Shown piece by piece: positions 9,692-12,721 of a DNA stretch of 64,000 bases. The notes under the pieces were generated by a model, which saw only the letters and a program-made list of their open reading frames with translations, did no database searches and was not told the DNA's origin. Location: contig OY969934.1 in assembly GCA_963704725.1 (NCBI GenBank), positions 2,528,001 through 2,592,000 of the forward strand. The letters are read 5' to 3'. The DNA comes from an uncultured Actinomycetes bacterium. Its GTDB lineage: Bacteria; Actinomycetota; UBA4738; HRBIN12. Numbering within the stretch: position 1 is the stretch's first letter; each line of letters begins with the position of its first letter. Position numbers and translations under genes: made by a program.

Positions 9692-10087
9692 ATGGATCCG
9701 CTCACGCTCATCGTCACGGCGCTCGCGACCGGTGCCAGCGCTGCCCTCAAGGAGTCGGCGGGGGACGCGGTCAAGAGCGCGTACGCCAAGCTCAAGGGGC
9801 TGCTGCAGCGCAAGCTCGGCGGGCGCCCGCTGGGCGAGGCCGTGCTCGCCGGCAACGAGGAGGACCCCGAGGTCTGGAAGGAACCCCTGAAGAAGGAGCT
9901 GCAGCAGGCGGAGGCCGATCGCGACGACGAGATCCTCCAGGTGGCCAAGGCGCTCGCCGATCTCGTGGCCCCCGAGGCGAGCCGTGCCTACACGATGAAC
10001 ATCACCAACGCCGGGCCGGTGGCCAAGCAGATCAACATCCAGCACGCCGAGCGCGTGGGGTTCGACGACGACGGGCCCGCCGGCTGA
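9692..10087 (+). CDS. Bell (bacterial HeLo-like) domain effector with C-terminal candidate amyloid motif
   Basis: GGAGGGA RBS; MDPLTLIVTALATGA N-terminal hydrophobic helix, AVKSAYAKLKGLL, EEDPEVWKEPLKKEL, DDEIL..A..L, then a polar beta-prone tail. Confidence 0.85.
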   Translation: MDPLTLIVTALATGASAALKESAGDAVKSAYAKLKGLLQRKLGGRPLGEAVLAGNEEDPEVWKEPLKKELQQAEADRDDEILQVAKALADLVAPEASRAYTMNITNAGPVAKQINIQHAERVGFDDDGPAG

Positions 10088-10099
10088 CCGGACGAGTCG

Positions 10100-12721
10100 A
10101 TGGATCCGCAGACGATCGCCAACCACGAGCCCATCGAGCGACAGATCAACGTCGGACAGGCGGACGCCGTCGCCGGGGCGGACAACGTCCTGCACGCCGA
10201 TCGCGTCGAGGGTGTCGCCGAGGTTCGGCACGCGGACGAGGTCCACCTCGTCACGCAGACCGGCGTCGTCCCGATCGCGCCGTTCCGTCTCTCGCACCAG
10301 ATCGTGGGGCGGGAGGACGAGCTCGCCGAGCTTCGCGCGCGGTTGTCCCGTCGCGAGGACGTCGCGCTCCACGGTCTGCCCGGCGTGGGGAAGACCGCTC
10401 TGGCGATCACGCTGGCCAACGACCCGGACGTGCTCGCGCGCTTTCCCGACGGCGTCCTGTGGGCCGGCCTCGGGCTGCACCCCGACGTCCAGGCGCTCCT
10501 CGGCCGGTGGGCCAGAGAGCTCGGGATGACCCCCGTCGAGATCGCCCGGTGCGCGGACCCCGAGAGCCTCTCGGAGGCGATCGCGGAGCGGATCAGCCTG
10601 CGCCGGATGCTGCTCGTGGTCGACGACGCCTGGGATGAGCGAGCGATGCTCTTCCGGGTGGGCGGACCGAACTGCGCGCACGTGCTGACGACCCGCTCCC
10701 CGCTGCTCGCCGTGGCGTTCGACGAGGACGGCGAGACCGCGGTGCGGGAGCTGGACGAGGGAGACGGGCTCGCGCTGCTCTCGGCGCTCGCCCCCGAGGC
10801 CGTGGCCGAGGCGCCGGACGAGGCTCGCGAGCTGGTGCGGGCGGTGGGGAGCCTCCCGCTGGCGTTGAACCTCCTCGGGTACCGCCTGAAGCGCGCGGGG
10901 TTCGAGGGCAAGGTCGGCGAGGCGCTGGCCCTGTTCCACACGGCCGAGGATCGGCTGCTGCAGGACATGCCGATCCGGCCGCGGGAGCGACACCCCGACC
11001 TGCCGCACGAGGCGACCATCTCGCTGCTCGCGGTGATCGGCATCAGCGACGAGGCCCTCGACGACATCGCGCGCCACGCGCTGCGGAGCCTCTCCGTCTT
11101 CCCGCCCAAGACCAACACGTTCTCGGAGGAGGCGGCCCTCGCGGTCTCCGCCGATCCCCCGGAGAGTCTCAGCCGGCTCGCGCTCGGGTGGCTGGTCGAG
11201 CGGATCGGGGGCCGCTACGCGCTGCACCAGACGGTCGGGGACTACGCGGCGGCGCAGCTCGACGACCGCGCCCCCTTCGACCGCATGGCGGAGTTCTTCC
11301 TCCGGCACGTCGAGCTGCACGAGGACGACTACCTGACCGAGCGATCGGCCGAGTGGTTGACCTGGCTCGAGACCGAGTACGACAACCTCCGCGCGATCCT
11401 GCGTTGGGGCAAGGAGGGACGGCCCGAGTGGGCGCTCCGTCTGGCCGGGGCCCTGTGGCGGTTCTGGGAGATCCGGGGGTACTTCTCCGAGGGACGCCGC
11501 GAGCTGGCGGAGCTGATCGCGCTCCCAGGCGCCCAGGACCGAACCGCGATCCGGGCCAAGGTCGTGGGTGCCGCCGGCAACCTGGCGTACCGGCAGGGCG
11601 ACGTCGCGGCGGCGACGCCGCTGTTCGACGAGTCCCTTTCCATCCTGCGGGTCCTCGGCGACGAGGCGGGCACGGCGGACGCGCTCAACGATCTGGGCAA
11701 CACGTTCAACGCGCAGGGCCGGTACGAGGAGGCGCGCCCGCTCTACGTCGAGAGCCTGGACATCCACGAGCGCCTCGGCAACAAGCGGGGCATGGCGGTG
11801 GCGATCAACAACCTCGGCTACATGGCGTACCGGCAGGGCGAGTACGCCCTCGCCGAGCAGCAGCTCGAACGGTCGCTCGCCCTGTTCCGCGAGGTGGGCG
11901 ACGTGTGGGACAGCGCGTTCCCGCTCTGCGGCCTGGCCCTGGTGGCGCTCGGGCACGGGGACGCGGCCGGCGCCGGCGAGCGGTGGGGGGAGAGCCTCGC
12001 GCTCCGCAAGCAGGTGGGCGACCGCCGGGGCCAGGCGGAGTCGATCGGCGGGTTCGGGCTCGTGGCGTTCTGGAACGGCGACCTCGGCGAGGCGCTGGCC
12101 CGCCACCAGGAGAGCCTTCGCATCCGGGAGGAGCTCGCCGATCGCCGCGGGATCGGGTTCTCGCTGACCAACCTCGGCACCGTCGCCTACCGTCTCGGAG
12201 ACCTGACGAAGGCGAGCTCGTACCTCGAACAGGGCCTCGCGCTCCGGCGGGAGCTGGCCGACCGTCGCGGGACGGCCGACTCCCTGGTCGGTCTCGGCAG
12301 GATCGCGGTCACGGCGGGCGACTGGGGCTCCGCGTCTGACCGGTTCCGGGAGAGCCTCCGGCTGCGTCTCGACATGCCCGACCGAGCCGGGATCGCCGAG
12401 GCCCTCGAGGGCCTGGGGATGGTTCGGATCGGCTCGGGCGATCAGGCGGCGGGAGTGACGATGCTCGCCGGGGCCGGCGAGCTCCGCACGGCCATCGGCT
12501 CGTCGCCCTGGCCCACCGACCGGCGAGACCTCGAACGATCGCTCGCCGTGGCACGCGAGAACCTCGGCGACGATGACCTCGCGGCGGCGGCGTCGAAGGG
12601 AACCACGATGAGCCTCGAGGAGATCGTGGCCCTCGCCGATCCGGACGGGTCTCCCGGCTCCGTCAGGGCAGTCGAACCGCCCACCGCAGCGCCACGAACG
12701 TCACCGCACCGAGCGCCGTGA
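10100..12721 (+). CDS. Bacterial NLR: N-terminal candidate amyloid motif, NB-ARC, eight 40-aa TPRs
   Basis: HGLPGVGKT Walker A, LLVVDDAW Walker B, LTTR, SLPLAL, LHQ (MHD-equivalent); repeats of AxxLxxLGxxAxxxGxxxxAxxxxxESLxLxxxxGD. Confidence 0.92.
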   Translation: MDPQTIANHEPIERQINVGQADAVAGADNVLHADRVEGVAEVRHADEVHLVTQTGVVPIAPFRLSHQIVGREDELAELRARLSRREDVALHGLPGVGKTALAITLANDPDVLARFPDGVLWAGLGLHPDVQALLGRWARELGMTPVEIARCADPESLSEAIAERISLRRMLLVVDDAWDERAMLFRVGGPNCAHVLTTRSPLLAVAFDEDGETAVRELDEGDGLALLSALAPEAVAEAPDEARELVRAVGSLPLALNLLGYRLKRAGFEGKVGEALALFHTAEDRLLQDMPIRPRERHPDLPHEATISLLAVIGISDEALDDIARHALRSLSVFPPKTNTFSEEAALAVSADPPESLSRLALGWLVERIGGRYALHQTVGDYAAAQLDDRAPFDRMAEFFLRHVELHEDDYLTERSAEWLTWLETEYDNLRAILRWGKEGRPEWALRLAGALWRFWEIRGYFSEGRRELAELIALPGAQDRTAIRAKVVGAAGNLAYRQGDVAAATPLFDESLSILRVLGDEAGTADALNDLGNTFNAQGRYEEARPLYVESLDIHERLGNKRGMAVAINNLGYMAYRQGEYALAEQQLERSLALFREVGDVWDSAFPLCGLALVALGHGDAAGAGERWGESLALRKQVGDRRGQAESIGGFGLVAFWNGDLGEALARHQESLRIREELADRRGIGFSLTNLGTVAYRLGDLTKASSYLEQGLALRRELADRRGTADSLVGLGRIAVTAGDWGSASDRFRESLRLRLDMPDRAGIAEALEGLGMVRIGSGDQAAGVTMLAGAGELRTAIGSSPWPTDRRDLERSLAVARENLGDDDLAAAASKGTTMSLEEIVALADPDGSPGSVRAVEPPTAAPRTSPHRAP

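Follow-up and report, generated by a model that had tools for sequence, protein, structure and literature searches.

In a 64,000-nucleotide stretch of the genome of an uncultured Actinomycetes bacterium (assembly GCA_963704725.1, contig OY969934.1, positions 2,528,001 to 2,592,000; hereafter the window), two adjacent genes probably act together as a Bell/BASS-type cell-death switch, in which an NLR signals to an effector (BASS, bacterial amyloid signaling sequence). The product of gene 1 is a small helical protein with a C-terminal tail, and that of gene 2 is an NLR-like STAND NTPase with a similar segment at its N-terminus. The layout of the two genes, the shared motif and its conservation, the pairing of the gene 1 family with downstream NTPases and the STAND architecture of gene 2 were established in this analysis.

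Both genes lie on the + strand, 12 nt apart, as stated in the original prediction, which was made from the letters of the sequence. Gene 1 (131 residues) runs from an ATG at 9692 to a TGA at 10085-10087 and has the N-terminus MDPLTLIVTALATGA, whereas gene 2 encodes an NB-ARC and TPR protein of 873 residues. The likeness claimed earlier for two 19-residue segments was confirmed to the letter: positions 10001-10057 of gene 1 translate to ITNAGPVAKQINIQHAERV and positions 10115-10171 of gene 2 to IANHEPIERQINVGQADAV, with 8 of the 19 residues identical and BLOSUM62 scores that add up to 42. When the C-terminal 45 residues of gene 1 were compared without gaps with the N-terminal 45 of gene 2, the best segment had 24 residues and a score of 44, which was reached in 3 of 5000 shuffles of both 45-mers. 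A second shuffle test, comparing the whole of gene 1 with the first 200 residues of gene 2, gave 2 of 500. The same motif register was found independently by MAFFT from seven effector-side and three NLR-side stretches. BLASTP of gene 1 against gene 2 did not report the motif, the sole match being an unrelated segment of 21 residues (E 0.07); apart from a common M-D-P start, the proteins are thus otherwise unrelated, as had been proposed.

BASS-type motifs are expected to be rich in Q, N, G, V and I and poor in K, P and L. The first five make up 12 of the 25 residues of the effector stretch, which has one K, one P, no L and two G. In the NLR stretch of 47 residues they account for 19, next to 8 A, 4 D, 5 E, 4 H and 3 G. 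The earlier description of the motif as Gly-poor therefore holds in a relative sense only. The absence of the RHIM G-x-Q-x-G core was borne out, since neither motif contains a G-phi-Q-phi-G core and neither matches Pfam RHIM (PF12721) at E ≤ 1.

The shared region is longer than the 19-mer and is periodic, a feature that goes beyond the original prediction. Residues 3-50 of gene 2, PQTIANHEPIERQINVGQADAVAGADNVLHADRVEGVAEVRHADEVHL, carry I or V at positions 6, 12, 18, 24, 30, 36, 42 and 48 (8 of 8), giving eight six-residue units of the form x3-[IV]-x2; from residue 21 on, four of the five units start with A-D. Residues 101-124 of gene 1 contain four units in the same phase (I104, V110, I116 and V122), with which the first four NLR units align, and these four positions are I or V in all seven effector-side sequences. 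When the NLR stretch was compared with itself at offsets of 6 and 12, between 0 and 8 of 2000 shuffles equalled the result for each of the three NLRs. As a control, runs of at least seven units were sought in the 17,723 stop-to-stop frames of at least 100 residues in the same genome, and only five had one, the other four being simple tandem repeats. Among 153 other tails and partner N-termini from related loci, no run reached five units except one Arg-rich stretch in a wrong frame. The periodicity control also met long six-residue tandem runs outside the window, e.g., 14 consecutive PEPVTV-type units, in minus-strand frames (G000:C1, offsets 555194 and 496055 of the reverse complement); these are probably tandem DNA repeats.

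Recurrence of the motif pair in another genome, as looked for in the original prediction, was found on a 1169-bp metagenome contig (L082). It encodes an effector with 85% identity to gene 1, closely followed by a second frame that begins with GTG; the first 60 residues of this frame keep the NLR-side motif and lead into the same NB-ARC domain. Between the window and this contig, gene 1 has a ratio of nonsynonymous to synonymous divergence (dN/dS) of 0.158 at a dS of 0.61, the value for the initial 218 codons of gene 2 being 0.128 at a dS of 0.82, and both motif regions are under purifying selection. A further NB-ARC/TPR protein, of 854 residues (P0021), starts with V-D-P-Q-T and is 76% identical to gene 2 over the first 62 residues. 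On the effector side, 11 of the 29 columns for residues 96-124 are invariant in seven close effectors that are 63-84% identical overall (S97, Y100, V110, Q113, I116, Q117, H118, A119, V122, G123 and F124).

By sequence comparison, gene 1 is a member of the Bell / Pfam HetE-N helical family, an assignment that runs through its homologues. A search of 5.8 billion protein clusters returned 19 proteins. Six of these (P0002-P0007, 64-84% identical) keep the tail of gene 1, while P0008 (54%) and P0009 (44%) share its helical part and have different tails. P0009 (phmmer E 3.5e-18 to gene 1) has a RHIM-like tail with a weak Pfam RHIM match (E 0.071), and P0010 (phmmer E 5.1e-16) carries PF20701 (HetE-N), the precomputed label of P0010-P0019, whose tails are Gly-rich. 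The nearest ESM Atlas clusters are named 'Het-E N-terminal domain-containing' and 'RHIM domain-containing' (score 0.95). When one genome per species was scanned, 80 loci were found, most of them in Actinomycetota, Cyanobacteriota and Chloroflexota and some in other phyla, which is the phylum range reported for Bell domains in a preprint (Dyrka 2020, bioRxiv 10.1101/2020.01.06.895854). In an alignment of 84 family members, 21 match Pfam RHIM (in the tail), 13 HetE-N and 11 EAD10 (weakly, best E 0.004). Gene 1 itself had no match at E ≤ 1 in Pfam (HetE-N and EAD10, PF19954, included), NCBIfam or PADLOC. Literature searches under the names HetE-N and EAD10 turned up only unrelated papers.

The predicted structure agrees with this placement. 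An AlphaFold2 (AF2) model of gene 1 built on the 84-row alignment has six helices in residues 3-105, with a predicted local distance difference test score (pLDDT) of 80-89 for the block and below 50 for the tail (residues 98-128). Gene 1 thus has the characters of a Bell effector, i.e., an all-alpha domain of about 100 residues, a hydrophobic N-terminal helix and an acidic residue 2. At the N-terminus, M1, P3, L6, I7, T9, A10 and G14 are invariant in all 84 family sequences, and the first 30 residues contain 14 invariant columns among seven close homologues. The family start, M-[DE]-P-[LIV]-[ST]-L, corresponds to the 'MEPIS' region, which is described as required for killing and as a feature that Bab, Bell and Hell domains have in common with Avast2 (Ibarlosa 2024, bioRxiv preprint 10.1101/2024.11.07.622273). 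The likeness to the HeLo/MLKL four-helix bundle that had been considered was not found. Foldseek of the model retrieved 14 PDB matches, none with E below 4.1 or a TM score above 0.26 and none of them a HeLo/MLKL or Bab relative, and the best hit in a profile search of PDB sequences was a designed binder (E 0.0044), nothing meaningful.

In four loci (L042, L060, L062 and L074) the family open reading frame (ORF) is 264-329 residues long and extends past a RHIM-like tail into long extra regions, with hydrophobic stretches in L042 and L060 and Sel1/TPR-like repeats in L074. The Bell-family domain is therefore not always a stand-alone protein of 130 residues.

To examine pairing in the family, each of the 80 loci was searched for the family ORF and a downstream partner. 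A family ORF of at least 105 residues was present in 77 loci, and in 57 of these 77 a nearby co-oriented ORF of at least 250 residues follows. In 30 of the 77, tail and downstream N-terminus share an ungapped segment scoring at least 44, a threshold taken from the window's own value and thus not an independent statistic. The 30 partners, scanned from the motif on for up to 650 residues each, gave 18 nSTAND1, 8 NACHT and 6 NB-ARC matches and also contain WD40 or TPR repeats. RHIM-like tails of the type G-[VI]-Q-[VI]-G-D are frequent among those shared. Since 30 of 77 loci show this arrangement and the partners are STAND NTPases, the gene 1 family is one that is paired with such NTPases by shared terminal motifs, the defining trait of Bell/BASS pairs. 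The effector-motif plus motif-NLR layout that was originally predicted is thereby borne out in related loci as well as in the contig L082.

Other tail types were seen along the way. In a Streptomyces sample, 9 of 98 genomes had a family match, with tails that were RHIM-like or of a 'VGVDL...' class and none like that of gene 1. The 'VGVDL' tails, about 50 residues long, acidic and rich in V and I, occur in several lineages (L096, L097 and L098 in the genus Streptomyces, P0017-P0019, L067 and L069). At positions 5001-7801 of L053, from a Chloroflexota metagenome-assembled genome, the Bell tail and the downstream STAND protein share a segment of 44 residues with a score of 130, in which at least two different motif types stand in series as a composite signalling tail.

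Gene 2 has the architecture expected of the receptor in such a pair. In addition to NB-ARC (Table 1), Pfam detects TPR_12 (E 5.7e-56) and TPR_10 (E 2.4e-29). The NTPase begins after only about 66-71 residues, a stretch in which no domain was detected and which is too short for a usual effector domain, in line with the lack of a folded N-terminal effector noted in the original prediction. EAD10 (PF19954) gave no match to gene 2 at E ≤ 1, and PADLOC returned a generic TPR model and weak matches only, with no match to a known defence-system protein. In an AF2 model of the whole protein (3-row alignment), residues 1-390 mostly have a pLDDT below 50 and only the TPR part is confident. Gene 2 is the one NB-ARC gene of the 3.45-Mb host genome, which also has one copy of gene 1.

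The motif itself is rare. It is present in seven effector clusters and two full-length NLRs among the 5.8 billion protein clusters. A two-sided profile applied to the longer proteins of this set through 739 word-sharing candidates returned at E ≤ 10 only P0020, P0021, P0001, P0002, P0003 and P0005, with no other effector type or NTPase class among the matches. In six frames of its own genome the profile matches only gene 1 and gene 2 (E 1.4e-18 and 5e-11; next best E 7.2). The tail of gene 1 was found in none of the 80 species-representative loci, and no match to gene 1 was found in 200 other genomes of the same order. Because it is so rare among the clusters and absent from these loci and genomes, the motif appears to mark a small clade of close relatives.

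No Pfam model, RHIM and EAD10 included, matched the motif, and neither did any of the 153 tails and partner N-termini of related loci (best E 0.009, 9.3 bits). As judged by these comparisons, the motif lies outside the classes compared, among which the published BASS1-10 and BASS11 models are not counted, and the earlier suggestion of an undescribed family may hold to that extent. Further diversity was foreseen in the preprint of Dyrka (2020), which calls a number of bacterial motifs above ten families 'almost certainly' the case and describes 44 pairs outside BASS1-10. Two papers (PMC12261475 and PMC8086366) use only BASS1-10 in the text covered, and the titles and abstract openings of literature from 2021 on name no further bacterial amyloid-motif family, supplementary motif-pair tables (e.g., Table S2 of Dyrka 2020) being outside this scope.

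In the probable mode of action, gene 2 would be the sensor, the TPR repeats of which recognise a cue that is probably related to infection. The NB-ARC domain would then oligomerise, whereby the N-termini (residues 3-50), unstructured until then, would come together in an ordered and probably cross-beta stack. The matching tail (residues 101-124) of gene 1 would be templated by this stack and, on folding, would free the hydrophobic N-terminal helix of the Bell-type bundle for membrane attack, leading to cell death. Of the amyloid, cell-death and anti-phage switch that was originally proposed, the layout and the family pairing are supported here. Amyloid templating, membrane attack and a role in defence or abortive infection are carried over from published relatives, including Bab/Agp and BASS motifs reported to form prions and fibrils (BASS1 and BASS3 data; Dyrka 2020), and may apply to this pair by analogy.

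Several observations weigh against the Bell/BASS reading. Gene 1 itself reaches no Pfam model, HetE-N included, and has no structural relative in the PDB, HeLo/MLKL and Bab included. The two genes were directly seen together with this motif in two loci only. The A/D/E-rich NLR stretch is unlike the G/N/Q-rich BASS logos as described, and AF2 models both motif regions with low confidence; no result of the analysis shows beta structure or fibrils. The neighbours of the pair are ordinary genes, in a region of flat GC content with no defence island or mobile element.

The main rival keeps the same sensor/effector module and takes the shared motif for an ordinary docking element of fixed stoichiometry (a short beta-solenoid, strand addition or helical packing) rather than a self-propagating amyloid, the NLR recruiting the effector and activating it by proximity alone. 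We consider this unlikely, though it has to be taken seriously because the make-up and rhythm of the motif differ from those of the tested BASS motifs. The strict six-residue rhythm and the A/D/E-rich composition, unlike those of the other tails, suit docking, as do the eight units in one NLR chain, which might thus be able to form a fold without a partner. A cross-beta stack was favoured neither by the fold models nor by a complex prediction; the latter, made for two effector tails (residues 92-131) and two NLR segments (residues 1-60) with their own alignments and without controls, gave no verdict (score 0.00, mark 0.32). On the other hand, the position, length and family context of the motif are those of tails described as prion-forming in relatives (Dyrka 2020), and its Q-I-N core and alternating polar and aliphatic residues suit beta strands. 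It is more doubtful still that gene 1 is a regulator or adaptor (e.g., one that inhibits the NLR by capping its N-terminus) and that killing or defence is carried out elsewhere. The missing structural match to pore-forming domains would fit such a role, and gene 2, having no other effector domain, needs an output partner that need not kill. However, the N-terminal hydrophobic helix behind the M-[DE]-P start is invariant at the positions listed above, and that helix is tied in the preprint of Ibarlosa (2024) to killing by Bab, where G11K abolishes activity, and to Avast2 function. That the two termini resemble each other by chance, or as a functionless relic of a local duplication, is very improbable. 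The motif is short and escapes BLASTP, but both shuffle tests, the conservation of both sides at the second locus (dS 0.6-0.8, dN/dS about 0.15) and the same arrangement in 30 of 77 related loci argue against it; chance likeness was rejected on the shuffle tests and the dN/dS values.

The rhythm also allows a more specific and rather speculative proposal, which we hold only tentatively: the motif may represent a new structural class built from six-residue units instead of a Gly/Asn/Gln beta-arch of the kind described for BASS motifs. The eight units of the NLR would then correspond to about 2.7 turns of an 18-residue triangular beta-solenoid, a ready-made multi-rung template. Assembly of such a structure might respond to pH or metals through its conserved histidines and acidic residues.

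The features of the locus are collected in Table 1. The start of gene 1 was placed by alignment with 18 homologues: the GTG at 9290, the mechanical ORF start, was rejected as 16 of the 19 aligned sequences begin with MDP or MEP, and the three longer sequences have unrelated leaders. A scan for promoters and terminators found no site of either kind in 9100-13000. Gene 1 and gene 2 are probably on one transcript, because the 12-nt gap contains no terminator-like site. Both genes open with M-D-P (9692-9700 and 10100-10108), and the NLRs of L082 and P0021 open with V-D-P from a GTG. This common start may be a coincidence, or a shared N-terminal processing or translation signal. A frame of 971 residues on the minus strand (9191-12106), opposite both genes, was dismissed as a high-GC shadow ORF; only its 3' end (9194-9520, 109 codons) looks real and has a weak YjbR-like match (E 0.00097).

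Table 1. Features of the gene 1/gene 2 locus (window coordinates).
Feature	Position	Strand	Basis or remark
Putative ribosome-binding site of gene 1, purine-rich	9672..9686	+	6-20 nt upstream of the ATG; proposed from sequence only
Gene 1, Bell / HetE-N-type helical effector with C-terminal signalling tail	9692..10087	+	ORF, homology, alignment, AF2, ESM Atlas
N-terminal hydrophobic helix, residues 3-19, after M-D-P ('MEPIS'-type start)	9698..9748	+	AF2 helix H3-19
Effector-side shared motif, residues 101-124, including the 19-mer 10001-10057	9992..10063	+	Segment comparison, MAFFT, periodicity
Intergenic gap, 12 nt	10088..10099	+	No terminator-like site
Gene 2, NLR-like STAND NTPase (motif, NB-ARC, TPR)	10100..12721	+	ORF, Pfam, AF2
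NLR-side motif region, residues 3-50, including the 19-mer 10115-10171	10106..10249	+	Segment comparison, MAFFT, periodicity
NB-ARC nucleotide-binding domain, residues 72-266	10313..10897	+	Pfam E 2.2e-17
TPR sensor repeats, about residues 484-800	11549..12499	+	Pfam; AF2 helical repeats, pLDDT about 90

The surroundings of the pair contain SpoIID, PepSY, YjbR-like, tyrosinase and PpoB2 copper-chaperone, PD40 and DUF2207 genes, and no signal of a defence island, integrase, mobile element or tRNA was found around it. GC content stays between 0.68 and 0.76 over the first 26 kb of the window. A recent horizontal-transfer island was considered, and no compositional or mobile-element sign of one was seen, although none of the 200 other genomes of the order that were searched with gene 1 has the pair; this sporadic distribution fits an accessory gene pair. 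A viral contig collection gave 10 pattern matches, none of them a relative. Directly downstream of gene 2 and convergent with it, a tyrosinase (Pfam Tyrosinase E 1e-34, plus DUF7868) adjoins a membrane protein that matches the PpoB2 copper-chaperone domain (E 1.2e-21; 12663-14860, minus strand), likely a melanin-type or phenol-oxidase operon.

Comparison with known systems places the pair closest to the Bell/NLR BASS pairs described by Dyrka (2020). The likeness includes a helical protein of about 130 residues with a hydrophobic N-terminal helix and acidic residue 2, a C-terminal motif of about 25 residues that recurs at the start of the NB-ARC/TPR protein encoded by the neighbouring, collinear gene, a tiny gap (12 nt here; at most 10 bp in 57% of collinear pairs according to the preprint) and RHIM-like (BASS3-type) tails in homologues of gene 1. 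The pair differs from them in its strict six-residue I/V rhythm and in a motif that matched none of the tails compared here. The repeats are expanded on the NLR (8 versus 4 units), whereas BASS1 and BASS6 are described with 2-3 pseudorepeats on the Bell protein and one on the NLR. The host has a small genome with a single NB-ARC gene and a single Bell gene, whereas that study ties such pairs to NLR-rich filamentous bacteria. RHIM/BASS3 motifs occur in homologues of gene 1 (the 21 of 84 with a Pfam RHIM match), whereas the tail of gene 1 lacks their core.

The Bab/Agp system of E. coli ECOR25, which uses BASS11, is similar in having a small Bell-related helical effector, the C-terminal motif of which also occurs at the N-terminus of the sensor encoded beside it. 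Assembly in that system is reported to be abolished by the proline substitutions N100P and N12P. Bab/Agp is reported as an amyloid-triggered abortive-infection system against phage T5 and is the one bacterial case for which amyloid conversion, abortive infection and the role of the N-terminal helix are described together (Ibarlosa 2024). The Bab domain is shorter (about 80 residues), no PDB structure matched the gene 1 model, BASS11 is described with four glycines as strand breakers, and Bab/Agp lies in a prophage defence island, unlike the pair described here. In HET-S/NWD2 of Podospora anserina, described in both preprints, the N-terminal motif of an NLR is likewise reported to template the C-terminal motif of a membrane-targeting helical effector from the adjacent gene, as may happen with gene 1 and gene 2. 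That system is fungal and has a HeLo domain and a NACHT/WD NLR, with two 21-residue pseudorepeats on the effector but a single one on the NLR. Its sequences are not similar to those of the present pair, and the repeat-rich side is reversed (NLR here, effector in HET-s).

Amyloid signalling from an NLR to a killer protein links bacterial, fungal and animal cell-death immunity, and in bacteria only Bab/Agp, the sensor of which is not an NLR, has been shown to work. The kind of system found here is already known, and since the field explicitly expected further BASS families, the pair is for now an incremental addition; its most distinctive features are the six-residue rhythm and the expansion on the NLR side. 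It provides a compact NB-ARC/TPR example, present in single copy, whose motif lies outside the classes compared and has a simple rhythm. Such a rhythm offers a clean model in which to ask what length of sequence templating requires and if the receptor can carry most of the template. The arrangement of HET-s and BASS1/6, in which the effector holds the repeats, is reversed here. The pair occurs in a small genome that has one NLR, and 200 genomes of the same order contain no relatives; this is relevant to the link that has been proposed between these systems and multicellular, NLR-rich bacteria.

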